DNA of 63,828 bases, the filler included, from Atractiella rhizophila (taxonomy: Eukaryota), in the NCBI GenBank assembly GCA_021432655.1. It is 12 parts of 8 records of this genome, joined end to end, with 100 filler letters (N's around TTAATTAATTAA, not from the genome) between each part and the next. Parts side by side here need not be neighbours in the genome. Positions count along the whole stretch, not along the records: positions 1 to 1,488 come from MU272066.1; positions 1,589 to 4,976 come from MU272066.1; 10 more parts are not named here. One strand, written 5' to 3'. Position numbers and translations under genes: made by a program. The notes beneath the pieces are model-generated. The model did no database searches and was not told where the DNA came from. It was given only the letters and a program-made list of their open reading frames with translations. Below, piece by piece: positions 1-44,485 of the stretch (positions within the stretch are counted from its first letter, which is position 1; each line of letters starts with the position of its first letter).

Positions 1-3000
1 GCGAAAGCTAATTGTTTTGGGCACAGAATTACGCGCTTCCACTGCGGACTTTTGCAAAGGACAAAAACTCGTTAATCATACCCCCTTTCGAGGCGAGGGT
101 CTTGTTTGGGAACGTGGAGGCGTTGTTGGGTCTCAATGAGCAGTTCCTCGGTGTTTTAGAGGGGATGAGGATCGGAGAGGAAGTGGAACGGGGAGCGGGA
201 GTGGAATGGGCCGGGATAATTAAGGATTGGGTAAGCTTCTCTTCCACCCTTGAAGAGAGTCAGGATCTAACACAAAATGTAAATGATGACAGATGTCGAG
301 GTTCTCAGTCCCCTACACGTCTTATCTCTCCTCCTATCCACAAGCGAAAGGCATAGAGAACTCCCTCATGGCAACGACGTCCCAGTGGAGGAGCGGATTC
401 AGTAGGTTTTGTGAGAAGACGAAGATGCAGACTTCCGGCAATGGAGCGGGAGGTATTGGGAATGTCGGATTGCGAGAACTGTTGATGGAGCCCATTCAGA
501 GGATTCCCAGATATAGATTGTTGATGGACGGTATGTCTCTTTCCATGTGATGCCGCTGAAGTAAGTGCCGATGTGCCTTTCGGTTGGGTGATTAGAGATG
601 CTTAAACACCTCGATCCGCATGATTCTAGAAGGAGAGAGCTGGAGGACGCGATTGAGATCGCTACCAAGATTGCGAACTGTGATTTGGACGAGGAAACTT
701 TCAGAGCGAATTGTATGACCATGTTACAAAGGAATATCGAGGATTGTCCGGTACGTCTTCCTCCTATCCCCTGTTGACCATTGAATGGTTCGAAGCGATT
801 CCTGACAATTGATGTCAATACAGGCGGACCTCATCTCAAATTCGCGCTCATTCATCGACTGCATAGACCTAGCCGACCTCCCATTGCCTTCCTCTTCAGT
901 CCCCTTCCCCTCGCCCTCCCTCTCTTCCACCATCGGCTCCTCATCCTCACACTCTCACTCACACGGTTCCTCCCTCTCTGCCTCTCACTCCGGAGGGAAC
1001 GTGGTGAACAACGTGTTGCATTGCACCCTCTTCCTCTTCACCGATAAACTTCTTATCGTTAAACGGAACACGACTTCGAATCTTACCGGTCGCGCTTTGG
1101 CCGGATTGGAGGATTTCAATTCTTCAGGTGGAGCGCCAGAGAGCCCGAGGAAGAGGGAAGGTGGAGGAAAGAAGAGCGCGGCGCTCAAGTTGAAGGGAGT
1201 GTTAGAGTTGACGGATGTGACAGCAGTAGATAAGGATGGGGATGGTGCGTTTCCCTCTATCATTCCTTCCGCTGCCATGGATGTGCTGATATGACATTGG
1301 GAGGATAGAGCTGGCTTTCTATTTCTCCCCTCCTCCGTACGACTCATCTGAGAGGTGGAACGGCCGTCCGCATCGTCAGTACGCCGTCATACCCACAACC
1401 AACCTCCTCTCTGCTACGACGAATACCCCAGAGACCTTAGCGTACGAGAAGCGTCGATTCCTGCACAACCTTTGGCGTGCACAAGCTCNNNNNNNNNNNN
1501 NNNNNNNNNNNNNNNNNNNNNNNNNNNNNNNNTTAATTAATTAANNNNNNNNNNNNNNNNNNNNNNNNNNNNNNNNNNNNNNNNNNNNCGCGGTTTCCAA
1601 CACGTCCTTAGCTGCGAAGAGCATGCGATTCCAAAGACCCCATAACCAGCATCGTCTCTCCTCCAACCAACACCCATACTGCCGCATGACTGCTACGCCT
1701 GCCGGCAAGGTGGAGAGCCTACTCAGCATTCCTCCTCCCCTCTTTATCTTTCGGTCGAGATAGGAGGGTTACAGTATAGTCGTGTAGGTACCGTCGCCTT
1801 CCTTACTATCTCCCTTTGCGTGGTAGGGGTAGGAATAGATGACGCCAGTGTAGGCAGTTGAGGTTGTGAGGGAAGTTGAACTCGCGGCGCGAGAAGAAAG
1901 GAGGTGGAAGGGAGAAGGAGCCCGAGAGGCCGCGAGGTGGACTTCTTAACTTTAGGAGGTTAGGTCGGTTTCGCGCTGGCCATTCTAAGCTTCAGCACAA
2001 GGCAAATTGCTACTCTTCAAATAGCCACTTCTCCTTCTCCCACGTTACTTCGTGCAACAAGTGGTGCAAGGGAGGCCTCACTCTCCGCCTCTCCCTCCTT
2101 GGCACACTCACTCTCACACTCCTACTCCTCGGCTACCACCTTCTCTCCCTCCCGCTCCCCTTCCCCTGACTTCTCCTTCCATTACCCTCCAGCCGATCCA
2201 GATACGTCAGCTACTTACTCGCGCTTAAACTCTACTCCAGGCGGACATAACTGTAGTTAACAGTCCTTAGCGAAGCTTGGTAAGTTACCAGTTGTCCCCT
2301 ATCCTCCTTCTGCATGGCCTGTTAGGAGCTATAAGGAAACATTGTACCAGTATGTTAAGCGAGACTTTCAAAGGAGCAGGTTTAGTGTCAAGCGTTAGAA
2401 CCATCGCTAGAGTTAGCGCAGGAGGTCGAGAGAGGAAGATCTTAGTACGCCTAGCTCCACAAATTCGTAGAGATTAGTGGGTTGGTTTCCCGTGTAGCCG
2501 TGAATGAAGTCGCCGTACTCTTCCTTTCTCTGTATGGCAGGTAGTTGTTAGATATAGATCCTTAGGAGACTTACCCGAGGTAGTTGTCAAGAGCGTTAGG
2601 GTGTAAGGGTTATGGAGGGCGAGGTAAGGGGCTTCAGACGTAGAAGCAGAAGAGTGTTTTGGATGACTTAGGCGAGGAGGTGACCCTGCAGCAACGGTAC
2701 TCCCTCAAGAGATACGGAAAGCGAACACCTATCCTCCTGTTCTATTCTGCACATCCCCTGACTCTTGGAGCTGTAGGCACAAGCTCTCCTTAAAACGAAA
2801 GACGCTCGTTCCGCCGGTCTCATGCTTGAAGTCGAAGATCGCTCTCACGGGCATGGAAAGTCGAGTGGGAGAGACAACGGGAAGGAAGGCAGCAGTTTAA
2901 GCTCTGAGCGGGTCACGACCGCTTTCTGGAACGTTTATGAGAAGAAACAATACTTGGGAGAGGCGAAGAAGGGGAAGATGGTCCTTCAAATCGATCCGAG

Positions 3001-4976
3001 GAACGAGGCGGATGAGATTGGTTTCGGCATGGAGGGTGGGATGGGACCGTTCGCGGTTGCGAGAGCGCACAGTGAGAGAAATGGAAAGTGGATGTACGTT
3101 CTCTGTCAACAAGATCATTTCAGTGCTGTCGTTAATGGGCGTTCGGCAGGCTCTCGATTAGATTAAGGGGGATGCAAGGACCTCCTGGCGAGGATCAGCT
3201 GGTGACTTCTGGTATCATCCCCATGATGATTCAAACTTGTGGGTTCTTCTGCCACATTTGTCTGCAATCCTGTTGAATTAGGTATCTGTAGTGCAACAAC
3301 TTGGCCTCCACGATGTCCCTCCACGCTTTCCAGCTCTACCGACCCATCCCCCGCCTGAGCAACCCATCACTCCCACCGTCCGCACCCGTTCCAACACCTT
3401 TGGTCTCGACAGCATTTCGCGCAACCTCCTCTCACGCGACGTGTTTGGAAGCATCACTAGCAGTCACAAACGAACGCAGTCTACGATTACAAAGACATCC
3501 GGCGTTGAGAGTCGGTCTATCTTATCGAATAGTGTTAGTGGTTCTACGACAGCCACGTCCCTGATGGAAGACGGATCGATGTTACGCCGCCATTTGCCAC
3601 CGACCAAAAGCCAGCTATCGCAGGTCTGGAGCAACCATATTGCCTCGAAGTCTACGCCTCAACTTGAGGGCTCCATCAACGAGGATCCCGACAAAACGAT
3701 TTCTGCTGCTGATTCTGATGAGGACACGATGATGGAGCTCGTAACTGAGCCTTCTAAGGGCAAGCGGCGTCGACCATCAAGCGTACCTCCACCGTGCACG
3801 GATCGTCGTCCCATGTCTCCAACCGACGAACTCGTGCCTCCCACATCCATCTATCTCTCGCGACCCGAGAGAAGGGGGCCCATTGGCCCTCGAGAGCCGT
3901 CTCCGTCACCTGTACCTCCTCCAGGGTCCGATGAAGAAGATGAGGGAGAGGATACCACTCCTGACGGTCAAGAGTCCACTTCATTCACTTCCGAGCCTGA
4001 CGAAATAACCGTCGAGGAACAACCTCTGCGTCCTTCCACTCCTCCCCCCTCCACTTCTCCACCGCGGATAGCGAAACGTCCACTTCCCGACCCAACTTCC
4101 CCTCGCTCTCTTCCACCCGCTGCTAAACGACCTGCATTAGACGATTTAGGAGCTGGTAATACAGAACCTAGCGCGCCGCAGAGGAAGGTGTCGCCTCTGA
4201 GACGATCCACCTTTCGGAAAGAGAGGACTGTGCCTTTATTGGAAGCGGAAGGGGAAAGGAGGAGCAGTGCTGATGAGCGCATGGATGTTGATCGTGCCGG
4301 TGCTCTGCAACGATCGAGAAGTCCTCCAGTATGTACCTCTTTATGACTAACCACGCACGATGCAGAGCAATGTCACAGGCCCTCCTTCCCTCCGCGATGC
4401 ATGTCGACTCTCAACCCGTAGATCGACTGCTCATTTCTCGCAGTCCGGTATGTCCAAATGTCGTCCAATTTTCTAGCTAACATGAGTGTAGCCTCCGATA
4501 CCCACTGGAAAAGGAAGGGTGGATGCCCTTCGTTCGAGTCTGATGAGGAAGATTGCAGAAGAACAAACATCTCCAAGGACAGCCAGTACAGGCTTGACAC
4601 GGTCACCATCAACGCTTAACATGATTGTAGGCATTTTGACTACGTTGCTGGTACATATCTGATGTTGCATTCAGAACAAATTCGAGCCCATTGAGCGAAT
4701 ACGAAGTCCGCCAGTCCTGTCGCGATTGCGGGAGGAGGATGGAGGCGAATGGCAGAGGCGGTATGAAAAAGCAGAAGAGAGGTGCTTGGAGCTTCAAAGG
4801 ACTGTAGAGTCCCTTCGTGCAGAGAAGGATGAGGTTTATATCTCCCATGTCCGCTGCTGAAGGAGTTGGGCTGACCATTTGGCTTCATTGCAGTATGCGA
4901 GGGAAGTTGAACGAGTGACAGAGCATTCGAAGCAGCTTACAGGGCAATTGGGAACGCTCAGCGGCATGTATCGACA
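1..4976 (+). CDS. RhoGEF (Dbl-homology) protein, Bud3/Gef2-like; multi-exon, partial, split over two contigs
   Basis: DH-domain motifs LFGNVEALLGLNEQFL and GLRELLMEPIQRIPRYRLL, PH-like LFLFTDKLLIVKR, long S/P-rich exon 3291-4330. Normal-orientation sequence resumes at 2777 with gcacaagctc, the same 10-mer that ends the first contig (1479-1488). Confidence 0.8.
1489..1588. other. Artificial contig linker (N-run, TTAATTAATTAA, N-run); also at 4977-5076, 15688-15787, 18228-18327, 24225-24324, 31669-31768, 33856-33955, 44486-44585, 55104-55203, 61075-61174, 62681-62780
   Basis: Same 100-nt spacer eleven times; the palindromic 12-mer puts stops in all six frames. Confidence 0.99.
1589..2776. repeat. 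Mirror (reversed, uncomplemented) copy of 292-1478
   Basis: Read backwards without complementing it matches 292-1478 with scattered substitutions, e.g. 2776 leftward gatgtcgaggttctcagtcccctacacg equals 292 rightward. Confidence 0.97.
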
Positions 4977-6845
4977 NNNNNNNNNNNNNNNNNNNNNNNN
5001 NNNNNNNNNNNNNNNNNNNNTTAATTAATTAANNNNNNNNNNNNNNNNNNNNNNNNNNNNNNNNNNNNNNNNNNNNGAGGAGGAGGCGAGCGAACTGGGG
5101 GCAGCTGAGTCCATGGTTGTAAATTTTTGGACTACTCCAGGGGCTTAACATCGATTCACGCCCCTTAGGCCCCCAACGCTGCCAGTGAGAGTGAGAGGAA
5201 CTTCAAGCTTGTCCTGCTGGTATATCCCATCCATATCCCATGAAAGGGGCTTCAAGGATGGTTGACAAAGGTTGTCCTAAGATATTTTGGGAAGACATGC
5301 CGCCCCAACCGTAACGGTGATACCTGTTGTCACTTTAATGTTACATCGCGTTCTCTTTTCGTCAGCAGGCGTATGTTTTATGTTTCTCCAATCATGAGTA
5401 GTTCCTTTTCAAATGTGAATCCAAAAATTGTCAAGGACGAGAATCTGTGCAGCTCTCTCAAACTCCGCGTTCATCCCCCTGTCTGAATGCCCGAATAATG
5501 ATAACGTTTCCTTGCCCCTGTTGCGGTCCCCTGAGGACCACGGGATGGAAGGTTGGTTATTTGCGTCAATCCCCACTGACTACTTAGAAGTGAAAATTTG
5601 AAATGAGCAGAAGATGCCTGGGCAATTATGGAGGCGAGAGGCCGACCTGAATTGATAATGTTCTAATTTTGATCATCATGCGCCGTTAGATCCTTTCACC
5701 GCGACCAGATTTCTGTCAACAGGGTCTCGGTTTAAACGCTGACATTTCTTACTGTCGACGAGAGACACCATGTTTCGCATCCTTCTGCACGGCATTTTAT
5801 CTGGTGTTTCACAGGTCGTAGAACCCCAGGGCTATACGGGAGATTCACATTGAAAAAAAGGGAACAAGTGACTGACGCCAGCACATTTTCTGTTCAGCAA
5901 GAAGATAACATTGAAGAGGAACCGCGAACTACTCTTGTGTTCGTTAAAGGAGAACCGGCCTTAACTTTAAGCTCAGCTCATACGCTTTGTAGACGGAAGG
6001 CAGCCGAGCTTAATAATCGACTTCCTTCCGTCCGTTTCGCCATTTTTCCATTAGCACAGGTGGCCCGCATGCCCTTGGAGTGAAGATGATTCNNNNNNNN
6101 NNNNNNNNNNNNNNNNNNNNNNNNNNNNNNNNNNNNNNNNNNNNNNNNNNNNNNNNNNNNNNNNNNNNNNNNNNNNNNNNNNNNNNNNNNNNNNNNNNNN
6201 NNNNNNNNNNNNNNNNNNNNNNNNNNNNNNNNNNNNNNNNNNNNNNNNNNNNNNNNNNNNNNNNNNNNNNNNNNNNNNNNNNNNNNNNNNNNNNNNNNNN
6301 NNNNNNNNNNNNNNNNNNNNNNNNNNNNNNNNNNNNNNNNNNNNNNNNNNNNNNNNNNNNNNNNNNNNNNNNNNNNNNNNNNNNNNNNNNNNNNNNNNNN
6401 NNNNNNNNNNNNNNNNNNNNNNNNNNNNNNNNNNNNNNNNNNNNNNNNNNNNNNNNNNNNNNNNNNNNNNNNNNNNNNNNNNNNNNNNNNNNNNNNNNNN
6501 NNNNNNNNNNNNNNNNNNNNNNNNNNNNNNNNNNNNNNNNNNNNNNNNNNNNNNNNNNNNNNNNNNNNNNNNNNNNNNNNNNNNNNNNNNNNNNNNNNNN
6601 NNNNNNNNNNNNNNNNNNNNNNNNNNNNNNNNNNNNNNNNNNNNNNNNNNNNNNNNNNNNNNNNNNNNNNNNNNNNNNNNNNNNNNNNNNNNNNNNNNNN
6701 NNNNNNNNNNNNNNNNNNNNNNNNNNNNNNNNNNNNNNNNNNNNNNNNNNNNNNNNNNNNNNNNNNNNNNNNNNNNNNNNNNNNNNNNNNNNNNNNNNNN
6801 NNNNNNNNNNNNNNNNNNNNNNNNNNNNNNNNNNNNNNNNNNNNN

Positions 6846-7872
6846 TTGCGTGTCCACTAACGCACTACTCGCTCCTTTCCGTTCCATCAGTTTCGCCACC
6901 AAAAAGGACTGGCGGTACAACGGGTGGGACAAGGCTACTAGGTAGTCAACGTCAAAGGCTCTCTGGTGTCCCTTGGATGTCATCTTCTTTTCTAGGGTCG
7001 GGTAAACGGATGCTCCCGTGGCCTGTAGGTTTCGTACGGGCACCTTAGTTTCTTCGACGAGGTAACTCGTCCTCGTGCAGGTATTGCTCGACCGCTGTGC
7101 TCTGTTACTCGACAAATTTAGAACAGCATCTCTCAAGTTTGCATGATCCCTACGGTTTTTCTTTAGGTAGCATTAGGAACTCTTGTGAACCTAGCCACTC
7201 CTGTCCCATTAGGCTGAAGCCTCCTCGCACGTAGTAGAGTTCCTGTAAAACCCCCTCCCCGATTGTTTCGTCACATTTATCCAAAGTCAGTTCCCGAGTT
7301 ACTCACCTTTCGGGTGAAAGTCCCTCGACTATCTATAGGTGTCACGGTGGTCGTCGAAAATGAGGAAACCGATGTGAAAGGCTTTCACAGAACTATACGG
7401 GTATATCTCTCATTTTTTGCTACCGCTAAAACCCACGCCGGTAAAGATATTTAGACATCAGCTCTACACTCCAATCCAACCGTCCTAGCTCAAGCAGCCA
7501 AAAACTGACTCCCCACCAACAGTGAGTTCAGAGAAAAATATACAAAATCGGGTAAAATGCTTCTTTCCTTTCCATTTATCCTCAAACCGAAATCTTGCTA
7601 CAGACATCCCCATCGGCTTTGCTGACCCCGAGAAATCACTCCTGGATGGGTCAGAAATCATAGGTGGGAGTGCATAGTGAGTTTCCGTTTCTTTAACATT
7701 CGGTCCTTCTTTTGCTGAAGTGGGACGCAATAGTGGTGCTGCAACCATCGCTGGCGGCGATGGATCACGGCAGCCAACCAAGAAGGAACTCGGGATTGCT
7801 GAGTATCAGGGCAAGTACTTCACGACCCAACTAGGATACTATGTCGCTGGAAAGGCTGCTGCTTCCAAATGA
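6846..7872 (+). CDS. NAD(P)H:quinone oxidoreductase, WrbA/PST2 flavodoxin-like; promoter and 5' exons lie in a mirrored block (6846-~7560), 3' exons (7604-7872) are normal
   Basis: Backward read from 7443 gives [42 protein letters not shown]...YDGFLFGIP.RYGRAPAQW...GGQHGGQE with GT-AG introns. Forward exons give IPIGF...[37 protein letters not shown]...stop at 7870-7872. Confidence 0.92.
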
Positions 7873-9104
7873 AGCTAGAATATTAGAGTTCTGAGAGTGT
7901 GTGTAGTCTGCAAAAAATGTCAGTGATTCAGTTAAGACAGTTCCATGGCAATCTTTAAGTTGAATTCAAGTTGTGTGAACTGTTTGCAAATCGTGCAAAG
8001 GTGAACTGAACCAAAGAAGTAACGTGGAAACGTCTGATTTAGATTGGGTTTACTGCGGCCACCGTACATTCGTCCTGAACGAATTTAACGAATCGACCAC
8101 TTCTACGATGGCAATACATATAGGTTGATTGGAGTGGGGTCTGTCATGCGCGTAAGATTCTAGACAATTCTGAATTCATTTTATCAAACAAGTCTCTTGT
8201 CCACGTCAAATGTGGATGTTTTTTGTCGAAAGTAGCCAAACCCAATTTTCCTTTTTTTTATGGGGGATGGCAACTAATTTGAAACCTTCTCAAATTTGCA
8301 TGCGTACAAAATTTTCTTTCATAAATTTATAAAACATCAAGAGACACCCGTTAGGGTCTGAACAGGAAGCTCAAATATGGAGGGCCGTGGTGAATGGTTT
8401 CTGTTCGACATGTTGTTGAGGATCCTTTACACAAAGTCTTGAACTTGAGTTTCTCTTATATTTGATTGGTTCAGGTCGATTTTTCTAACACGGAAGGTCC
8501 TTTCCATCGTTGTGCTATCGCAGTCTTCATTTTACTTGAATAGCTCCTTTGCGGTGAAGTGTTTGAGATAGCCCAACATCCTTGTGGGATTTCTGTGCCG
8601 TTTGGAGCCTGATCGTGAGACCGTGAAGAATAACAGATAGTCGAAGTGGGAAATACAAGGTTGGATTCCATCCTGTCATTGACTTCTTCTCCCATTCGGC
8701 CTTCGCGCGGAAGAGAAGAAAGGATTTGCGAAAACTCAAAGAGTGGAGCCCATTCCTGGCTCCGCGATTGTATGGCTGTACCCTGCACATTGTAGATTTA
8801 ATTGAGCAGAGGAGAAAGGCAGAGTTGTATTTGTACGCTTTTAGCCTTTTTTGGCTGACACGGCCATTATTGTGGCCTTCCATGGAGTTCCACTCTCCTT
8901 TTAAGTGGGAGGAAGATGCTACGCATCGCGCGAGGATTACATATCTTACATCTTGACGGTCTTTCCGTCTTCCAGCCGTTTCTGAGCAATGCTTTTTAAA
9001 ATGTACCTAATGTATAAAGTAGGCTTGAATCGCTCCCTCTCAGAGAAAACCAACAAGCTCAAAATGAGATGTTGTTTGACAAGATTGAGAATTGATACCT
9101 AAGA

Positions 9105-9950
9105 ATGCCTGCTCCCAAAATCGCCATCGTCTTTTATTCGTTATACGGACACGTTAAAACCTTGTGGGAGAGTGTAGCTAAGGGAGTGACACGGTGGATA
9201 TCTATCAGCTTCCTGAAAGTGCGACAGCTCCCATTTTGCTTTCTCTCATCGTCAGCAACTCATTTATCTCCATTGTGCAGCGCTCCCTCAAAATGTTCTA
9301 GAGATGATGCACACTCCTCCAAAGTCGGATTATCCTGTCCTCACCAACCCGAGTGTTCTCAAAGATTACGATGGATTTCTTTTTGGCATCCCTAGTACGT
9401 TCGAACTCTCCACAACAATATCATGAAAGCTCATTGTCTCGCTTCGCCAGCTCGTTATGGACGCTCTTGCTCAATGGAGCAGCTTCTTCGATTCCACGGG
9501 CATGCTTTGTATGTCCGGTGCACTTGTAGGCAAGTGGGCAGGCATATTTTCTTCTACCGTGAGTTTCCTGTGTGTAGTCTTTCTGAACCTGCAAACTGAT
9601 TGACCCCTGCGATAGGGTGGACAACATGGCGGTCAGGAAACCACGGCTTTACCACATTGCCTTTCCTCGCCCATCATAAGATGAGGTTCTCGTTCGTCCT
9701 TCCACTTATAATTAAATGGTCCTGTAGATATCCCTATTGGATTTGCGGACCCACAGAAATCACTCTTGGATGGCTCAGAAATCATTGGAGGCAGTGCATA
9801 GTGAGCTTTTCATTTCTTTTACCACTCGGCCTTTTTTGCTGAAGCGTGACGCTACAATGGAGCGGCAACCATCGCTGGCGGCGATGGATCGAGACAGGCA
9901 AGCAAAAGAGAACTCGGAGTTGCTGGATATCAAGGTAAGTATTTCGCGAC
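9105..9950 (+). pseudogene. Second WrbA/PST2-like copy, frameshifted
   Basis: [20 protein letters not shown], same exon layout as the upstream paralog. A 13-nt deletion near 9189 and a 2-nt deletion near 9463 relative to that paralog give an early stop in exon 2. Confidence 0.8.
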
Positions 9951-10246
9951 TATGCAAAGTAAAGGTATTGGACAAATGAGACGATTTCAAGAAATTTGGG
10001 GACATAGTTATAATGGCACTGTTACAACGCTTTTGGCTCCAGACTCTATAAGATCTCATATCCGTACATCATTGGATACAGCGTGCGGTATCCTAGTAAG
10101 ACTAAGGCGATGATAAACAGAAATCTGGGGCCACAAAAAGAAAGAGATCTAGACTGGACAGATTACGTTTACTGCGGGACACAAAACGTCATTTCATTTT
10201 GAGGAAGTCTCTTCCGTTTTCCAAACAGACCTCACTTGACTCTCAC

Positions 10247-15787: not shown

Positions 15788-18227
15788 TGAGCGTGCCTGT
15801 GCCCAGCTTTGTGACCTTCTTATCAAACCAAGCCGCGCTCGTGCACATTCCAAAAGCTACAATCTCAACGTTCCATCCCTTCTTGAGTGCCGCGCGTATG
15901 GGTGTCATGAATCCCTCGTCGCTGAAGTCGGATGCTGCACCATCGCCCGAGACGAGAACGATGGTCACTTTAGCGTTTGGAGAACGTTCAACGGCTAAAG
16001 ATTCCAGTAACTTCATTCGCAGGATTTCGTCAACACCCTAGGATCCCACCCTGGTTAACGAAGGAAAAGAAAGAGGAGGGCAGAAGAGCACCTGTTCAGT
16101 ATAACGGACTCCACCTGAAGTTTGGCGAGTTCGAAGACGCTTCACTCCACGACGTCGGCGGCTTGGATCGAGAATATCGTCATCCGGAAGGTTCACCGCC
16201 TGTCGCACGCGCTGTAAAAGAGAAACTTCGTAACCCTAAACGACGTTGAGTTCAAGACTGTAAGTCACTGTAGGACTGACCCATTCGACCGCAACCTCGA
16301 GGGATTGTGGGAGCGGAGAACTGCCAACAATACACTTTGCCCTTGCTTTGCGTCCTCTTTCGAGGATGCTAAACAACATGGCGTAATCCAGCTTCGGCCG
16401 CCGTCCCATGAACTCCCCCTGTGCCCTGGCCTGATCCGAGAATACTGACCTTCCGGCTGCACGCTCTGCAAACTTGATATACTTTAGGAAGGAGAGGTAG
16501 ATGTTAGAGTTGTCGATGAAGATTTCGATATGATCTTGTTCTTCCATCGTTGATACCTCCCGCACTTCATCGCTGTCCAACTTATGCCCTGCCCTCAACA
16601 ACTCCCTAACCTTCTTCTCCTGCTCTATGTTCAAAAACCCCTTCGTTCGACTCGTCCACAATCCCTTTACAGCGTGTTCGTTTGGCGGCCCCGTTGGCAT
16701 TTCTTTCGGTCCAGTGAGACGAATCAAGCCTTGATGAAACTGCTTAGACCGCTCTCTTTCCTTCCTCGCAACATGTTTCGGAACGTCGAACATCACCATG
16801 TAATTCTTCATCCTTCTAAAGTCTTGCGGGAACTGTTGCTTCACTCGCTGAAGGATGAATTTGATCTTCTCAGAAGGAGGGAGAGGAAACTTGTCCCGAA
16901 GCTCGTCCGCGTCGTCGTTTCTTCGAACTGTTATCACAGTCTCTTTCGCCTTCTCCTTCTCCTTACTCGGTTCGCTCTCGAGTCACCCTCGCCCTTCGCT
17001 GTTCTTCTCAGGACCACCCTGCTAACCCCCTCTCTCACGCTCATCAAGCAGCTCCTTCAGTTGAAGCTGATGATGCTGCTCCGTGTTCTTCTTCTTAGCC
17101 TCCTCATCTTCGGTCCTACTGATACAGCCACGCTCGTGTCTGTGACTAAAAGAAGGTGGCTGTGCTTGGTAAGAGTTCTCGGTTAGTGCGGGCAGCGAAG
17201 CAGCTGTTCAAGAGTCGTGAGGACCTGTTGGATAGGCCCCCTCGCCTTGCGGTCTGTCAGGCAAGCTAGAGCAGTGAGGGGGAGGCTTCCGTGCCTCCGC
17301 TAGCTCTAACTCGTTCCTCGACCCGTCACACGTCCTCTTTGCCCACCTAACCGAGTCACCTCTGAAAAGCTACCGACTTCCTCTCCTACTTGTAGCAAGC
17401 TCGGACCTTTCCTCAACCCGAGGAGAGGGAGGAAGGAACGGGTTCTGCAGCGGTCGCTTTGGAGGTCGCGGAAGCGGAAACTCTCCAGGGAATTAGCTGA
17501 ACTGCCCTCTGAGGCTACGCCTGCAGAGGTACCTTCGGCTACTAAGAAAGAGATCCTCCTTCCTTGGTCTCTTCCCTTGTCTCCTACTATTACGCCTCGT
17601 TCTGTACCTGTAAAGCGAACTACTAGCTCGTCGCTACCTGCGGAGGTGGAGTAAGCTGCTTGCATCTGGAAAGAGAAGTTGGTGGAAAAGGAGGCTAGGT
17701 TGGGTGAGGGCGGGTAAAAGGTGTTGTTGGCAAGGCTGGGGGAAAGAGGAGAGTGTTGAAGTCATAGTCGAAGGTCTGAGGTGAGTGTTGCGGTCTACAA
17801 AGACCTGCGCTTGGGTAGTGCTGGCGCCTAAGTATACGGCGAAAAGGACGAGGTCAGTTCGTAGGACCTTAACATGCTTTCTTCCTTGGCCTCTTCTACA
17901 GTCTTCATCTTCGGGTACGCTACATGAATGAGCTGTACCCTTACCTTCAGAACTTGCATCGCTTCCTTAACTACTTCGAACCTTAGTTCCTGAACTTATC
18001 CCGACCGCAGCTGAATCGCCGAAACCTACTTTTCCATGCCCTCTCATTCTCCGTTTTCAGAGACCACCTACACTTAAGATCGCTCTTCTCATGCTCGTTC
18101 TTTCCTCCCGCACGACGACTATGGTAACAGTAAGGGCTAAGGGGTGGACGGCTTGTCCGGTCGAACTTCTAAGTTGCCTAACCTATGGTCCTTTGACGCA
18201 ATCCTTAGTGGCGTGTCGGAGTCGGAC
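15788..18227 (-). CDS. NYN/PIN (LabA/DUF88-like) domain protein, partial; N-terminal region lies in mirrored block 16943-18227
   Basis: IFIDNSNI, VGSSPL, EQ|GVDEIL, VLVSGDG, GWNVEIVAF acidic PIN motifs. The complement-only read of 16943-18227 joins in frame as ...AQPQP-E-TVITVRR. Confidence 0.85.
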
Positions 18228-18327: not shown

Positions 18328-18898
18328 CCGTCTACACAAGCGCGACATCATCATCGATACTCCCGGTGGGAACCCCTCCGCTTGCTGGTCAGGATACGCT
18401 TGTGAGCCGTACTACGACGGTGGGTGTTACATCCTACTCCTTGTTGTGGGACCGATTGAGCTGAGCTGAATATGGCACAAAGCGGGAATCTTCCCCGGTC
18501 ACTACGCTAGCTGTTTGCCAGCGACAACAGAAACTACTTCAACCTCTACAAGTCCAGATGGGTCCACCGTTTACGTTGTCATTTCACAAAGCCAAGATGT
18601 TTGCGGCCAATGCGTGTGTCACTACGGTTCGTCTCTCCTCATCTCAAGCTTGTTTTCCCTCCATGTCTGACCTGACTGATGTTTTTACGTCGCTTCAGAG
18701 GGAGAAGCACACTCTGGCAGCGCCGCTGTGACCGTCATCCCTCTCGTAACAGTAACAGTGACGGATTGGTCAAGTTTCACAGGTGGGAATGGAGGAAGTG
18801 GCAGCGCGGCCTGGAAGCGAACAATCGGTGGAACGGCCGCAAAACTCTTTTGGCTGGGATGGGCTCTCGCGATTGGAACGGTTGGGGCTGCTCTGTAG
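18328..18898 (+). CDS. Cys-containing secreted, probably GPI-anchored protein, 5' partial
   Basis: HKR|DIII Kex2-like site, several Cys, T/S-rich linker, GGNGGSGSAA followed by hydrophobic tail LFWLGWALAIGTVGAAL-stop. Confidence 0.65.
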
Positions 18899-19836
18899 AG
18901 GGATTTGAATCGTTCTTGTATACCATGTTTATTGATTTTTTCCTTCATCTTCAAGTTGGTGGTGATGGACGCGATCGGTTTCACTTCATTTTTGCATGAT
19001 TTTCTTGATCAAGACGCATGAATTTGTACCATCAACATACCTATGCATTGGTTATGAAGCTAAATTGAACACAATGCCTGACACGATCCAGTTCAGAGGA
19101 AAAATAGTTAACAGAATGCTCATCCAAGGAAGAACGCAGCAATTTTAGGAGATATCATTGTCGTTGAATTAAGGAGAGAGACTGAGCAGCCGACCTTAGA
19201 ATATGCCGTTTTAACTTTAATGATTGCACGAATAGTTCATGACCAATAACCCATATAACACGGCTAGCAACGCTCAAACGTTTTGTACAACGACTCCAAA
19301 CTCGTGAGCTCAACAAGGAGATCAAGCTCGCGTAATGTTTTTGGAGCCACAAAGTACAAAAAAACGATCGGAACGGTTGGGGCTGCTCTGTAGAGGGATT
19401 TGAGTCGTTCTTGTATACAATGTTTATTAATTTTCTTCATCTTCAAGTTGGTGGTGATGGACGCGGTTCGGTTTCACTTCATTTTTGCATGATTTTCTTG
19501 ATCAAGACGCATGAATTTGTACCATCAACATACCTATGCATTGGTTATGAAGCTAACACAATGCCTGACACGATACAGCTGGGAGGAAATAATTAACAAA
19601 CCCTCACCCAAGGTTGAACGCCGCAATCTTAGGAGATATCATTGTAGTGGAACTAGGGAGAAGGACAGAGCGATCGACTTTAGAATAAGCCATTTTTAAA
19701 ATTGCACAAATAGTTCATGACGAATAATCCACATAGCACGGCTAGCAACGCTCAAATGTTTTGTACAACGACTCCAAACTCGTGAGCTCAACAAGGAGAT
19801 CAAGCTCGCGCAAGGTTTTTGGAGCCACAAAGTACA
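18871..19836. repeat. Diverged ~0.48 kb tandem duplication (~18871-19357 and ~19366-19836)
   Basis: Both units run from gga acggttggggctgctctgtagagggatttga to tttttggagccacaaagtaca, with many substitutions and small indels. Confidence 0.93.
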
Positions 19837-25343: not shown

Positions 25344-25368
25344 NNNNNNNNNNNNNNNNNNNNNNNNN

Positions 25369-27057: not shown

Positions 27058-28266
27058 ATGGCTACTTCGATGCGGTCTTTCCCTAACGAAATATTTCAGC
27101 ACATCTTCGACACCTTCAAGCAACGGTGCTTGCAACAGATCGGACCTGACGGAGGCGTCTTTTTCCCAGCCAGTTTGACCGTCTTGACCTGCAGCCTTGT
27201 CTGCCGAGACTTTCTGCACTTTTCGAGAACAGTATACTTTGAGCGCGACATCTTCTTCGAGCAGTTTAACGCGGAGGATGAACAATCTCTGATAAAGTTG
27301 AAAATTTTGCTTAAATCGCCTTACCAGACTTTACACCCATATCTCAAGCAAGTCCTTCTCATGGATTTTGCACTGACCAGGATTCCTGGTGGTGATTACG
27401 ACATTTTTGCTCTCACGAACGAAGTCAACATCACGAAACTAACGTTGAAGAACATATCCGCAAATTTTGATCAGACTCTGATACAAGGGTTCGGAAAGCT
27501 CACTTTCTTTAAAACCGAACAGATGCAGTGGTTGTTTGATGATCTCGCCGATTTTGCAGCACATCATCCAGGTATCGAAAAGCTCCACATAAAAGACTGC
27601 GATTTTTATCGACCGCGCGAAGGCACAGTCGAGGAAAAAATATCCATAAACACCCGTCGATTCTCAAGCGAGCTCCGGTACCTATTTTTTGGTGGGACAT
27701 CTGCAGATATTGTTCTGAATGGATTGCTTCCGCTTTGCAAGCTTGCAAAGCTGACGCACGTCAAGCTTTGGGACCCTTTTAGGCGGCCACACCACCACGA
27801 ACGAAATATCAAGGCACTACAGACTTTTTTCGAAAGACAAGGCGACGTCATATCGACCATCGAAGCTCGAAATTCATATACGCCTGTTGACATTCAAGCT
27901 GCAGCATGGACGTCAATCCTCCATTCTTATCTGCCCAGAACATCAGCCCAAGAAGTCACTTTCGAGTTTGACCACAGGACTGATCCTTTGTTCTGGGGCG
28001 AGGCCATCAGCAGTTGGGAAATGCACAACCTCGAACACCTCAGACTGGAGTGTCACAGGTGGGGAACCAGGTTATTTCAGGCCTTGAGGAAGAATCTCAC
28101 TAAGAAGAGGTTCCCTATGTTGCGATTGATAATCTTGAAGGAGAATGCACGGCCAGGGTGGAGAACGGAGACTGAGATGGCGAGGGATATGTTGAAGCGT
28201 CACTTTGAGGGATTAGGCATACGACTTGCTCTTGTAACCTATTGGCTAGATGGGAAACTCTATTGA
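27058..28266 (+). CDS. F-box-like protein with LRR-like body, intronless
   Basis: 402-aa ORF; FPNEIFQHIF...LTCSLVCRDF F-box pattern; LxxLxL repeats. Confidence 0.75.
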   Translation: MATSMRSFPNEIFQHIFDTFKQRCLQQIGPDGGVFFPASLTVLTCSLVCRDFLHFSRTVYFERDIFFEQFNAEDEQSLIKLKILLKSPYQTLHPYLKQVLLMDFALTRIPGGDYDIFALTNEVNITKLTLKNISANFDQTLIQGFGKLTFFKTEQMQWLFDDLADFAAHHPGIEKLHIKDCDFYRPREGTVEEKISINTRRFSSELRYLFFGGTSADIVLNGLLPLCKLAKLTHVKLWDPFRRPHHHERNIKALQTFFERQGDVISTIEARNSYTPVDIQAAAWTSILHSYLPRTSAQEVTFEFDHRTDPLFWGEAISSWEMHNLEHLRLECHRWGTRLFQALRKNLTKKRFPMLRLIILKENARPGWRTETEMARDMLKRHFEGLGIRLALVTYWLDGKLY

Positions 28267-29611
28267 GCCAACTTTGTTGGCATGGATATCGATACTCGAA
28301 ATTGTAATATATGTCGGATTGGACCCAGCGACCTCTGTACACCACTGAATGAGGAACAAATTGCATCGATATTCACCAACTGAATCCCTTTTGAAGCTGT
28401 TCTTACAAATAAAGATAGGTATCTATCGGCCCAAGGGTATCAACTGCCTTCACCGCACACGATGTGAGGTGATGTGAGGTAGTACGATCAATCTCCTATC
28501 AATCATCGTCTGTCACGACTTCCGCATACGCTGGAGGCCTTGCCCCAGCAGCGTTGATTTCGCCTGCACAAATAAGGCAAATGTCAATTTTTTGGTGGGA
28601 CATCTGCAGATATTGTTCTGAATGGATTGCTTCCGCTTTGCAAGCTTGCAAAGCTGACGCACGTCAAGCTTTGGGACCCTTTTAGGCGGCCACACCACCA
28701 CGAACGAAATATCAAGGCACTACAGACTTTTTTCGAAAGACAAGGCGACGTCATATCGACCATCGAAGCTCGAAATTCATATACGCCTGTTGACATTCAA
28801 GCTGCAGCATGGACGTCAATCCTCCATTCTTATCTGCCCAGAACATCAGCCCAAGAAGTCACTTTCGAGTTTGACCACAGGACTGATCCTTTGTTCTGGG
28901 GCGAGGCCATCAGCAGTTGGGAAATGCACAACCTCGAACACCTCAGACTGGAGTGTCACAGGTGGGGAACCAGGTTATTTCAGGCCTTGAGGAAGAATCT
29001 CACTAAGAAGAGGTTCCCTATGTTGCGATTGATAATCTTGAAGGAGAATGCACGGCCAGGGTGGAGAACGGAGACTGAGATGGCGAGGGATATGTTGAAG
29101 CGTCACTTTGAGGGATTAGGCATACGACTTGCTCTTGTAACCTATTGGCTAGATGGGAAACTCTATTGAGCCAACTTTGTTGGCATGGATATCGATACAC
29201 TGATGCTTTTGTGTTGCTACTCTAAATTGTAATTGTCGGATTGGACCCTGTACGATGGGAAACTCTATTGAGCTGACTTTTTGGCATGGATATCGATACA
29301 CTGATGCTTTTGTGTTGCTACTCGAATTGTAATATATGTCGGATGGGACCCAGCGACCTTTGTACACCACTGAATGAGGAACAAATTGCATCGATATTCA
29401 CCAACTGAATCCCTTTTGAAGCTGTTCTTACAAATAAAGATAGGTATCTATCGGCCCAAGGGTATCAACTGCCTTCACCGCACAAGATGTGAGGTGATGT
29501 GAGGTGGTACAATCAATCTCCAATCAATCATCATCTGTCACGACTTCCGCATACGCTGGAGGCCTTGCCCCAGCAGCGTTGATTTCGCCTGCACAAACCA
29601 GGCAAATGTCA
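27684..29611. repeat. Tandem duplication (27684-28586 and 28587-29611); second unit holds a 5'-truncated F-box copy and an internal ~100-nt duplication
   Basis: Both units start attttttggtgggacatctgcag and end gcaaatgtca; the ORF track shows identical C-terminal 180 aa. Confidence 0.97.
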
Positions 29612-32008
29612 GCTGGACGCTCAACGCTCAAGAGAGACAAGATCAGTAGAGTGTACGAACCTGAAACGAGCCTGGCGAACTGTAATGAGTGGTTCAAGGC
29701 TCGTTCAGCGGACCTCAAGTCCACAGGGGCTGTTGGGGTTGTCGGTGATTGAGGAATTGTATGGGCAAAGGCCGAGCCAGAATGTTGAGGACGCTCAAGG
29801 TCTGACAGCTCGTGATGGTGAAAGCCATGGTCGACGAGAATGGGCTGAACAGCTCCGCATTGATGGGACGCTTGGAGGTCTATTGTCCCGTCTGCGAAAT
29901 AAGTCGGCAAGTGATTCTGTGAACATCGACACTATAAAAAAAAAAACAAAAAAAACAAAACGGTGGCAAGAACCGGAAAGGAGGAACCAACCGAGAGGAT
30001 ATGTAGTGGAGACTCGATAATAACATCCCAAAGCTTTCTCTGTCCTTTCGAATCAAGATGATCATCATCTCCACGTTCAACTCGAATAACAATTCTTAAA
30101 AGATGCGAGATCGCCAATAGAGCCTTCTCATGCACCAAGGAGAAGTGAAGGTTGGACTGGCAATCCGGAAGCTGGAGTTCTCCTTCAAGGATCCAAGGTC
30201 CCAAAGGATCCGCCAACGAGGGGACCTGGGTCTCATCGCCCTCTCCAGCGACGAACAATTTCTTCAACGGGCTCGTCTCGAACGCATCTTCTTCATCGCT
30301 CGTGATCGGCAGAATCGCCGTCCGCTGCTCCCCAGGGATCTCAGCTTTGAGAAGTTGGAAGCGCTTCGGTCCTTCGTGCCTGCTGATCTTTTTTGAATGC
30401 GCAAAATAGTCCACCTTCTCTTCCAAGACGACCAAAATTCGATACACCTTCACTTTGGCGAGTGGGTCGAGGCGGATCGAGACCGGGATCTTCGAACCGA
30501 CGCAGAAGGACTAAGCACGGCTGTTGAGAAGAATTGTTGGAGAGTGACAGTGAACGACTTACCTTTCCTGACAATGCAACCATATATCGCATCTGCGTCT
30601 CCCAAAACCTCTCAATAACAATGCTCTCCACAGCTTCCGTGCTTTCATCAGAAGGGCACGACACGAGATGAACCTCCATTTCGCTCTGGAGGTTCGGAGT
30701 CAAGACTCCAGCGCGCTGGACGTATGCTTTCAATCGATAGACGACTGCTCCGAAGTTACAATGCAGCGTTGGCGGCAACGACGACGAGACGGGGATTTGG
30801 ACTGGATAGGTATACGTCCCGGGACGGAACTCTGTCCAAGCGTTCTCATCTTCTTTCTCTTCCTCCTCTTCTCTTCCCTCATGTCCCGCTTTTCGACCAT
30901 CTCCCATCCCTGAACCTGTTGACGGTTCCTTGCTGAGTAATGCCTCCTTGATCGCTCTCAACGTCTTCGTCCTTCCCCTCGAAGACTGGTCATTCTTCCC
31001 CGTCAGGCTAGTCGTCGTATCCCTACTTTCGCGTTCCGGACTACTCGGTCTCCTCCCACCGCTTCCGCCTTCCAACATGCTCTTCAACTTCTCTTTATCG
31101 TTCCCAAAGATCTTGCTCAAACTAAACCTACTCTTCTTCTTCCCCCCACCACTCGCTTTCTCCTCACTAAACCTCACCGTCGCCCCATTCCCACTCTCGC
31201 TAGGTCTCCTTCCCGACCCCGCAAACGAGAGCGAAGTGCCGGTGGTGGTGGAAGTGGCGGATTGGAACAAGTGTCCGTTTCCGATCGATCGTCCGCGTTC
31301 GCGCTCGAATCGCGCGTCTTCCCTTTCTTCTCCCGCTCGACCTAGTTAGGAAAGCAGAGAAGAGGGAGGTGTGGCGTCCTTCGCTGTCAGCTTCCTCAAG
31401 CCTGCGTGCATATGGCCCCATGTAACTTCGCAGCTGGAGTCTAAGTGGGCGGAGGGAGAAGGGAGGTGACAGTGCTTTGCGCTGGAGGAGGAGCTGGCCG
31501 TGAGGCGGCGGTAGCAGGTCCAACCGCTACTGTTTACCCTTGCCTCCTGTAGCACCCTCGCTGTAAAGCGTCTCGTCACCCAGGCCTTCGTGCTAAAGCT
31601 GATGGGCTCTTCTGAGCCCGTCTACCTGCCTGTAGTCAGCGAGGACACGGACCTAGGTGGCAGAGAGGNNNNNNNNNNNNNNNNNNNNNNNNNNNNNNNN
31701 NNNNNNNNNNNNTTAATTAATTAANNNNNNNNNNNNNNNNNNNNNNNNNNNNNNNNNNNNNNNNNNNNGAGGCGTCGCGCATTCTGCCTGTTCCGTCGAT
31801 AGTTCTGCCGATCGGAGCGGAGGAAGACGACGGGTTCAGTGAGGCGGAGCGAGAGCGTCGTCGGCGGCATGTGCGCGCGTGCTGGTGCTGTCGAGTAGGT
31901 AGTTGCAGGAGAAGAAGCTGAGGAAGCTGGTGAAACTGGGGAAGCTGGAGAAGAGATGAGGTCGTCGTTTTGTTGCGGCCGAAAGACCGTGAGGCGCGTG
32001 GGTGTCAT
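29524..32008 (-). CDS. Alpha-arrestin (ART/Aly-like ubiquitin-ligase adaptor), split by a linker; 31341-31668 mirrored
   Basis: LSLRLTEPVVFL N-terminus, WTEFRPGTYTYP, LPPTL, YRLKA, ISHLLRIVIRVERGD, C-terminal PPAY. Confidence 0.9.
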
Positions 32009-34361: not shown

Positions 34362-40326
<5,965 letters not shown>

Positions 40327-40873: not shown

Positions 40874-43800
40874 ATGACAGTTCCCGCTTTCGGGGATTCA
40901 ATACCTGTACGTTTCCTTTCCCTTCTGAGACTTCACTAACACCAATAACAGGTATTCTCGCTCCCCTTGGTAGTCCTAGCGATTAGCACCCTTAGTGCCC
41001 ACCTTCCACGACCCAAATTTCTCTCTCCCTTCGTCTCTGACGAAGCAATACCTCCTCACCTCCAGCCAGGCTTCCCAACATTCACTCTTTCCCGTGCATC
41101 TGTATGGAAAGTGCTCCTGCTCCTTCTCACACTGCTAGTCAACATAACCATTCACACCCATGCGATCTTGGTTCGTTTGAAGGGTAAGGGTGAAGGAAGA
41201 TTTGGGGAGGATGAAGTCGCCATTGCCGTATATCTCCTAGAGGTCGTTTACATTTTGGCTTCCCTACCGTTGCCGAAACTCCCTTTTCCACTCTTTCTAG
41301 GATTGATAGTTCAATGCTTCATCGAGGTTCAAGAGGGACTTCCAGGACTGATCATTTCGCTCGTCTTACTTGCTTCCTTGCCACTGCAGGAATTCATTCC
41401 TCCTCCTCCCTGTTCTGGCCATGCAGGAGGAGAGGAAATACCTAGTCCCAAGCATTGTGCAGGGGAAGACTATCGTACAGTATGGGGATACTTCTTTGTC
41501 ACTTGGTCTGCCCTTCTATCTCTCCTCGTAACGCTGTTTGTTTGTATACTCATTGACTGCTCGACGACGGAGTTCAGGTTCTCGCCGCTCGTCTCCTACG
41601 CTTCCGCAGCCGGTTCCCTCTCACCGTCGGATATCCCTCCCCTCCCCGGTTCGCTACGACACACCGCTCTGTTTGGGGCCTGGTCCACAGCTCCATCAAC
41701 GTCAAATGTGGATCGAAAATTGATCTACCGCATCCTGGCGCTTAACCGTTTCACCATCATCTCCGGCGTCTTCCTCCGTCTGCTATCGACTCTCGTTTCC
41801 TTCGCTTCTCCTTATTTCATGCAGAAGATATTGGAGGAGTTGTCGCGAGAGGAACCCGAACGTGTGCTGGCTTTCAGATACGCAGCGCTTTCTTTGGGCT
41901 GTGGGATGGCCAAGGCAGTGGTCAACAATAGGTTCATGGAAGTCATTCGGATCTTGATGGTTCAGGGCCACAGTGTTATGCGAGGTGGTCCGTTAAGCTT
42001 CCGTTCTATCTGACACTGCAACTAATCTTCTTGAATTCGTCATCCAGAAATATATCGTAAAGCCCTGAAACGGAAAGACTTCTCGTGTGCAGCGGACGAG
42101 AAGAGAAAGGCGTCACAGGGTAGGTCCTTCCTTCGCTTTAATGACATGAAGAGTTCGATGCATTGTTTGATGCAGGGAAGACCATCAACCTGATGGCCAT
42201 CGACTCTGACAGAGCAGCAGGTATTGCTTTCTTCGCAATTAATAGGATCGAGGCACCAGCATTCCTGGTGATAGGCATCGTCTACCTTTATAAGTAAGCA
42301 ACAGATTCTCCAGTGAAAATACGCCTGTACATGTCGCGGTTAGCTTGTTAGGCTATAGTGCCCTCATTGGAGCAACGTTTGCATTCGCCTCTGCCGGAGC
42401 AAGCAAGTTAGTAATGAACCAGTACCAAAACGTCTGTATTTCCCCCCCCCCTGGCTCGTGCCTTGTGCATTTACTCAGTGAAATTGAATAGTTAGTGCAA
42501 ATATCTAACAAAGTGAAAGATCAGTGTGTTGTTGTCATCACAGGAGAGGAGTACATATACTGATTAATTGGTTGGCTTAGGCGAATGACAAAAATGAACG
42601 AGCTCATTCACTCTATCCGGCATCTTAAATGGTTTGCATGGGAGGACGAACAAGCGAAAGAGGTGATGAAGGTTTGTAATTCACTCTTCTCTACTTCGTA
42701 ATTTCGGCGATTTCATGTTTCGATTGGTAGGTAAGGGAGAAGGAGCTCAGAGTCGCCTTTGCCATGAGGATCTGGAACGGAACTATGGGTGCGATTTGGT
42801 ATGCTGGACATTTCCAGTTACAAATTATCGGGCGTCTGTACTCATGCAGTTTATGGTGGTAGGGGTTTAACGATGCCTGGAGTTCTGTTCATTTCTTTCC
42901 TGGGTTTTGTGAAATTGCAGGGTCAAGAGCTAACGTCCGTCTCTCCTCCTATGCTTCCATTTACAAAGTAATCCTGTCCTTTAGGGTGCCTGTCTCTTTC
43001 ACCGCCTTCGTTATCTTCAACATGCTCGAAGCTCCGGTCTACCTGCTCTCCCAAGGTCTCATGCAGATGATCATGGTATACGCTTCCGTGCCACGTATTG
43101 ATGCTTTCTTGAGAGAAAATGAGGTCGATTCGGACCTCGAGAAGACGATGCAGGGCACGGTTGGGTTCAAAAACGCCTCTTTCGATTATGAACAAGATGG
43201 TAGATTCAAGCTCATGGATCTCGACGTAGAGTTCAAAGAAGGCTTGAACCTGGTCGTTGGGCTGTCTGGCAGCGGGAAAACAAGCTTGCTTCTCGCACTC
43301 CTTGGCGGTCCGTGGCTCCATTTTCCTTTATCATTCTTTGTTGAGATATGGTGTGCAGAGCTTCGACAGATAGAAGGAGAGCGATTCCTCCCTCGATATA
43401 ACGAACCCCTCAATCCAGAAACCGGATTATACAACGGAACGGCTTACGCTTCTCAGACTCCTTGGCTGCAACATGCAACTATCAGAGACAACATTCTGTT
43501 CGGAAACGAGTATGAAGAAAAGCGATACAAAGAGGTCTTGAAAGCCTGTGCATTGGAGAAAGATTTGGAGATTCTGCCCAGCGGTGACTTAACAGGTTTG
43601 CCTTCCTCGTTCATGGTGATGGGGTGTTAATCTTGTTCGGAACCAGAAATCGGAGAGAAGGGCATATCACTCAGTGGTGGTCAAAAGGCTAGGGTATCTC
43701 TCGCGCGTGCTTTCTACTCGAGGAGTCGAATCCTTCTTTGCGACGATCCCATCTCCGCCCTCGATACACATGTTGCTTCTACTATCGTCAAGTCGTTCGA

Positions 43801-44485
43801 TTCTCAGCTGATGAACGGCCGTACTATTGTTCGTTCTTATTTTCTCCTTTTGTACGGTACTGAGCAGCAAACACAGATCCTGATCACCCATGCCGTAGAC
43901 CTGTGTCTCCCGCTCGCTGCGTTCTTAGTTACCATGTCTGAAGGACGCATCATCCTTCAAGAAAACGTGGAGAACATGAAGAAAGGCGGGGATGCACAAG
44001 GAAAATTGCAAGAAGTCTTGAAGACAGAAGAATCCATCAACATGGCCATTCATGAAGGTTTCACCAATGGTTGGGTGCCGACACCTCCTGATGTTGTAGC
44101 GAAGAAGGCGGGATTATTGGTAGCGCAAGAAAAGAAAGCTCAAGGCTCCGTAGCTTGGCCTATCTATCATGCGTACGTGAAAGTAAGTGGCCGTATTGCA
44201 ACTGACGCCGTACTGACGTGATATACAGTCAGCTGGATACTGGCTGTGGCTTATTGTTCTCATCTGCTTGTTAGCGAGGGTTTGGTCAGGTAATGTGACA
44301 CCGTCTTCTGCTATGCTATTTCGCTTACACGAACCCAGAAACGGCTGTTCAATATTTTCTGAAGATTTGGGGCGAAGCGTACGGTCCAATCGACAAAAGT
44401 ACAACTTGGAGCCACATTAGCCCATTGAAGAGCAAAACTGCTGAGAAAAACAGTGTTCCTTGGGGTTTACCCGACCCGCGAGAGA
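40874..44485 (+). CDS. ABCC/MRP-family transporter, tandem paralog copy 2, 3' partial
   Basis: Same exon layout as copy 1; [17 protein letters not shown]. Confidence 0.93.

Follow-up and report, generated by a model that had tools for sequence, protein, structure and literature searches.

Reversed, uncomplemented contig end with exons of a BUD3-like RhoGEF gene of Atractiella rhizophila, very probably derived from a second allele

Symmetry of DNA under plain reversal is known from natural mirror repeats of the H-DNA type, which are short homopurine or homopyrimidine tracts, and there is to our knowledge no process of replication or recombination by which a strand becomes reversed but not complemented. 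False duplications and uncollapsed haplotype overlaps occur beside assembly gaps, and inversions and inverted repeats have the order of a segment reversed relative to a reference copy. The stretch of 1188 nt described here, located directly after a gap in the sequence of A. rhizophila, has something in common with each of these. It shares the symmetry under plain reversal with the H-DNA-type repeats, but these are homopurine or homopyrimidine tracts of tens of bases, whereas the present stretch is ordinary complex sequence of 1188 nt with 48% purines, 52% GC and longest purine or pyrimidine runs of 15–17 nt. As in an inversion or an inverted repeat the order of the segment is reversed, but its reverse complement is identical to the reference copy in only 45% of the columns, against 97.9% under plain reversal. 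The closest likeness in layout is to a false duplication or an uncollapsed haplotype, with an apparently allelic copy of the end of the neighbouring contig found across a gap, at 98% identity and with differences of the type seen in natural polymorphism; here, however, the copy is in addition reversed without being complemented, and is therefore invisible to ordinary overlap or duplicate detection. Judged by titles and the beginnings of abstracts, none of the papers listed for reversed but uncomplemented sequence is on assembly artefacts, and judged by title there is no genome report among the listed publications on A. rhizophila, the one found for its assembled genome being a taxonomic description.

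The window, i.e. the whole stretch of 63,828 nt that was analysed, is a chain of 14 sequence pieces with eleven 100-nt linkers and two plain N runs (6093–6845 and 25344–25368) between them. Contig 1 ends at position 1488 and contig 2 covers 1589–4976, with the mirror piece located at the first linker (Table 1). In a preliminary description positions 1589–2776 were said to mirror 292–1478 with scattered changes and to continue at 2777 with the bases that follow 1478, and both statements are exact. A global alignment of the plain reverse of 1589–2776 (1188 nt) to 292–1478 (1187 nt) has 1163 identical columns out of 1188, with 24 substitutions and one indel of a single base, and positions 2777–2786 (GCACAAGCTC) are the same as 1479–1488, the last ten bases of contig 1, with the sequence from 2777 onward continuing that from 1479 onward. 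The other possible relations, computed with the same aligner, are at noise level, with 643 identical columns of 1281 in the direct orientation (50%), 574 of 1267 for the reverse complement (45%) and 587 of 1264 for the complement only (46%). When the reversed window was compared to the window itself by BLASTN (E<=1e-10), two mirror pairs were found in the 63.8 kb, the first being the piece at 1589–2776 with 292–1478 (97.9% over 1190 positions, E 0.0) and the second 6864–7444 with 9104–9676 (78%). No direct or inverted copy of 292–1478 was found by an ordinary self-BLASTN of the window. The geometry is that of a flip in place, since stored position 1589 pairs with 1478 and stored position 2776 with 292, and the piece begins at the first base after the linker and is joined at its other end to correctly oriented sequence.

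Table 1. Positions of the features discussed, in coordinates of the window.
Feature	Position	Strand	Remarks
Forward copy (probable allele a)	292..1488	+	End of contig 1; four RhoGEF exons, three introns
RhoGEF exons, forward copy	293-530, 596-750, 824-1244, 1309-1488	+	From X3 spliced RNA contig; P0004 tiling exact
RhoGEF introns, forward copy	531-595, 751-823, 1245-1308	+	GT..AG
False intron implied by P0004	1477..2783	+	GT..AG; contains contig 1 tail, linker, all of the mirror piece and the next 7 nt of contig 2
Linker/gap between contig 1 and contig 2	1489..1588	.	100 nt, N44-TTAATTAATTAA-N44; one of 11 such in the window
Mirror piece	1589..2776	.	Initial 1188 nt of contig 2, reversed but not complemented as stored; true reading 2776->1589, probable allele b of 292-1478
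Mirrored introns in mirror piece	stored 2472-2536, 2244-2316, 1759-1822	.	Reversed storage
Rest of contig 2, RhoGEF gene continuation	2777..4976	+	Correctly oriented; P0004 exon blocks
P0004 exon blocks in contig 2	2786-3094, 3151-3237, 3294-4328, 4379-4447, 4492-4626, 4675-4833, 4894-4965	+	P0004 tiling
Second flipped contig end	6846..7560	.	About 715 nt, directly after 753-N gap; k-mer score -7.15 per 100 nt
Third flipped contig end	16970..18227	.	1258 nt, directly before linker; k-mer score -8.89 per 100 nt
Candidate fourth flipped contig end	31445..31668	.	k-mer score only, -7.53 per 100 nt

The content of the two copies is like that of the BUD3-like fungal RhoGEF genes, which encode a DH domain (PF00621). 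The exon at 293–529 matches the Pfam RhoGEF family PF00621 with an E value of 6.2e-9 and 36.7 bits, above the cut-off of 27.6, and the exon at 824–1243 has a weak similarity to PH_BUD3_C with 21.7 bits, below the Pfam cut-off of 27. One contig of 2582 nt from the public run X3 skips from 229 to 292, 529 to 595, 749 to 823 and 1243 to 1308, each time with GT..AG borders, indicating that this run contains spliced RNA, and it independently confirms the exon model of 292–1488. When the mirror piece is un-reversed, the introns have the same borders as in the forward copy (GTATGT..TTAG, GTACGT..ACAG and GTGCGT..ATAG), and the translation gives the identical 328 residues if one extra base is ignored. 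Compared to other BUD3-like RhoGEF genes the gene itself is ordinary, and the fault is confined to the way in which the assembly represents it. The mirror piece is a data error and no biological structure; it is very probably an artefact of the assembly or of a post-assembly step, in which the genuine letters of a second allele (b) were written reversed without complement. The earlier characterization as real sequence in an impossible orientation was borne out, both by these exons, introns and protein and by the recurrence in public runs of 17 of the 24 substitutions.

The public runs with the locus are X1 and X2, which are from one DNA sample, and X3; the sampled word fractions were 0.76, 0.74 and 0.31, and the data were kept as contigs. 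These contigs were compared over 1–1488, which includes the forward copy, and 30 variable places were listed within 292–1478, with 18 further rows beyond the list. Among the listed variable places, the 17 b-type substitutions that recur in X1, X2 or X3, with the same letter and in forward orientation, are at 466, 508, 545, 547, 549, 886, 979, 1016, 1018, 1054, 1102, 1138, 1204, 1337, 1349, 1421 and 1433, whereas 30 variable places in 1187 positions would by chance alone give less than one such match. The seven b-type substitutions outside these matches among the listed places are at 328, 439, 578, 581, 1222, 1478 and 436, the last being a site where the runs have C>A and the mirror copy C>G. 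At another 12 of the 30 listed places the runs have variants that are absent from both copies (454, 529, 537, 538, 750, 775–817, 1060 and 1192), and these extra variants, together with the words missing in X1–X3, indicate that the runs seem to come from other strains. The X1 contig over 818–1246 shows 11 differences, of which at least eight are b-type. Over 478–611 there are two contigs in each of X1 and X2, one that is identical to copy a and one that is b-like with 10 differences, with depths of 110.7 and 145.2 in X1 and 134.2 and 184.1 in X2, and two contigs at about 1:1 depth indicate that the X1/X2 sample carries two haplotypes at about 1:1. The RNA contig of X3 is a mosaic, with b-type letters at 466, 1204, 1337, 1349, 1421 and 1433 and a-type letters at 508, 886, 979, 1016, 1018, 1054, 1102 and 1138.

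The mosaic suits recombining alleles better than fixed paralogues, and bears on the possibility that the source of the flipped piece is a second locus with a recently duplicated paralogue, instead of an allele, which would leave the orientation artefact unchanged. Such an origin is improbable, although two 98% copies at about 1:1 depth would look identical in the contig data, and true tandem paralogues exist elsewhere in the window. Against it stand the mosaic of a and b letters in the RNA contig, as expected for alleles that recombine, the seamless join of the piece to a single downstream continuation of the same gene, and the collapse of identical stretches into a single contig at roughly summed depth. 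Copies a and b are probably alleles of one individual, and the assembled strain is presumably heterozygous at this locus; the source may be a dikaryon, a diploid or a mixed culture.

The public gene model P0004, a partial protein of 1251 aa under the same species name, is located on a contig of 10,622 nt and tiles the window exactly over residues 233–1251, with its twelve blocks distributed to either side of the linker. The match is exact for 1017 of the 1019 residues, the other two being split codons at exon joins. The model jumps from 1476 to 2784, and its junction reads HNLW-P-LLKTKD where the DNA has HNLW-RAQA-LLKTKD, so that RAQA is replaced by P and three residues are lost. The X3 RNA contig spans 1308–1488 without a gap, indicating that the real mRNA keeps the RAQA codons. 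All eleven linkers have stop codons in all six frames, and P0004 is 3'-partial, stopping 11 nt short of the point at 4976 where contig 2 ends. At least the first linker falls within the span of this one gene model, and the linkers may therefore represent scaffold gaps and not record boundaries. The resemblance of the N44-TTAATTAATTAA-N44 linkers to a later joining device could raise the suspicion that the reversal arose during preparation of the window and that the public assembly lacks it. This is very unlikely, since P0004 matches the exons of the window exactly and yet skips 1477–2783, with the loss of three residues that are retained in the RNA contig, whereas a correctly oriented copy b would have offered a straight-through model. 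The skip suggests instead that the defect was already present in the annotated public scaffold.

The substitutions between copies a and b are not distributed as errors would be. There are 19 in the exons and five in 203 nt of intron, and all of the 19 exonic ones are synonymous, with 17 codons changed in the third position only and one codon changed from TTG to CTT; the one at 328 adjoins the extra base, where the alignment is ambiguous, so that the exonic set can also be counted as 18 clean synonymous substitutions and one complex frame-breaking event. Given the 230 synonymous and 754 non-synonymous sites, 19 synonymous changes out of 19 have a chance expectation of about 1e-12. The preliminary description had pointed to some synonymous changes, such as tcc ggc versus tcg ggg, and this pair is found as TCC GGC and TCG GGG at 434–439, with both changes synonymous; the count of 19 to 0 in the exons agrees with its expectation that the changes respect codon position. 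The ratio of transitions to transversions is 13:11. The intron divergence (5 in 203 nt) is lower than the divergence at synonymous sites (19 in 230 sites), which together with the 19 synonymous against no non-synonymous changes is somewhat cleaner than in typical alleles. The mirror piece documents an allelic divergence of about 2%, and about 8% at synonymous sites, for the RhoGEF locus.

The extra base is located at stored position 2739–2742 approximately (equivalent to 326–328) in the first exon, where it breaks the frame; the true tip of the piece is 35 nt away. The contigs of X1–X3 that are listed over 326–328, with 26 further pieces beyond the list, show no gaps, and a consensus error close to the contig's true tip is the probable source of the base. 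Together with the location of the piece at a contig end, this base could be taken to mean that there is no second haplotype at all and that all 24 differences arose by sequencing or consensus error where an end extension was thinly covered. There is hardly any probability left for this reading, because errors would fall without regard to codon position and would not be shared by independent runs; it is already contradicted for most of the sites, and may still hold for the extra base. The second haplotype of the preliminary description is thus supported, but indirectly, by the synonymous-only changes in the exons and the X3 mosaic, and by the two contigs at about 1:1 over 478–611, which are from another sample.

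The reversed allele at 1589–2776 is not the only segment of its kind in the window. A strand-symmetrised 5-mer score was used, in which the frequency of each word is set against that of the plainly reversed word as a log ratio, and a held-out version was trained on 33956–63828 only. Four stretches are flagged by the score, all of them touching a gap or a linker; the 14 pieces have 28 ends, of which 4 are negative. With the held-out score 34 background tiles have a mean of +8.65 per 100 nt, with a standard deviation of 3.72 and a minimum of +1.83, while the mirror piece has -9.73 per 100 nt, and the verified flipped pieces are separated from 34 of 34 background tiles.

The second flipped end, 6846–7560, belongs to a tandem paralogue pair, 6846–7826 and 9104–9950, with about 78–81% identity, in which the first copy has the flipped start. 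When it is un-reversed in place, two disjoint matches to the paralogue at 9104–9950 become one colinear alignment with 78% identity, and the local score increases to 771 from 234 as stored, with the best boundary at 7559–7560. No Pfam family was found for the open frames of the paralogue at 9099–9395 and 9728–9979. The third flipped end, 16970–18227, encodes on the minus strand, after un-reversal, residues 1–111 of the public protein P0001, which is named in NCBI as a hypothetical protein of A. rhizophila with 485 aa. Residues 1–471 of P0001 can be aligned continuously only after the un-reversal in place (score 2312, against 1776 as stored), and the junction is then exact, AQPQP|ASKEKEK, whereas the stored sequence matches only from about residue 112. 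The reversed reading of 16970–18227 contains an open frame of 1062 nt. The gene copy in the window (15789–18227) differs from P0001 in three residues, D20N, I59V and Y323C, indicating that P0001 is from another haplotype or strain. This copy is located on a 2.4-kb contig, and P0001 on a 54.8-kb contig where it is assembled correctly; the small contigs of the window may be alternative-haplotype fragments. The mirror piece at 1589–2776 had been proposed as the internal control for the whole phenomenon, and with the ends at 6846–7560 and 16970–18227 verified independently it can serve as such.

The stretch at 31445–31668 is a candidate by its k-mer score. By tblastn with 15 homologues, from the best 23 of 150 listed proteins, the stored orientation of this region is right up to about 31312, and for 31346–31668 the 15 homologues gave no match in either orientation when compared to the stored contig and to eight in-place flips of it. 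Six-frame translation of 30900–31668, stored versus reversed, gave no clear winner. A wider flip starting from 31000 was rejected, since the homologues support the stored orientation to about 31312.

With the phenomenon confined to contig ends, with 1.2 kb of mixed sequence in which exons and introns are read backwards, and with no strand-reversing process of this kind that we know of, a genuine genomic mirror repeat, for which nothing speaks beyond the stored sequence, has a negligible probability.

If the piece is an artefact carrying a second allele, the first 1188 bases of contig 2 would have been written in reversed order and uncomplemented, and this might have happened by two routes. The reverse complement of a terminal segment could have been done by half, or an end extension could have been built outward from the contig and attached unturned. 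By either route the end at which the operation was directed would come out reversed in place, and this would suit all three verified flips. Contig 1 and the core of contig 2 overlap by just ten bases, and the 1188-nt piece looks like an extension of contig 2 into a gap that was really an overlap, taken from the other haplotype. The real overlap of contigs 1 and 2 is therefore about 1.2 kb long, with 98% identity, and no true gap lies between them; the mirrored state presumably hid this overlap from recognition, and the gap would have stayed open for that reason.

Whether a systematic pipeline fault has left reversed but uncomplemented ends on many contigs of this assembly, and possibly on others made likewise, is evenly balanced on the present data. 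If it has, gaps that could be closed stay open because of such ends, and deposited gene models are truncated or distorted unnoticed; with three verified cases in 64 kb the genome-wide count could reach hundreds. Segments that are only reversed evade BLAST, dot plots and the purging of duplicates, leave false gaps and damage the annotation, as seen from the change of RAQA to P in P0004 and from the first 111 codons of the window's copy of the P0001 gene, which are readable only backwards. Whole assemblies could be screened for such segments with the k-mer score, which compares how often each k-mer and its plain reverse occur. The biological significance is nil, as the genome is without a mirror repeat here, and the value of the observation is in data quality.

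The window also contains other repeats in direct orientation. A direct repeat of 612 nt, 27684–28295 and 28587–29198, is 100% identical with starts that are 903 nt apart, and is flanked by repeats with 90–91% identity (28249–28586/29254–29611 and 29152–29248/29254–29351); a tandem-repeat gene and an erroneous duplication are both conceivable. A second one, 36093–37927 and 42579–44403, is 1.85 kb long with 79% identity and located on one contig, and the pair is probably paralogous genes. The segments 18870–19358 and 19365–19836 are an adjacent tandem duplication of about 480 nt with 88% identity.
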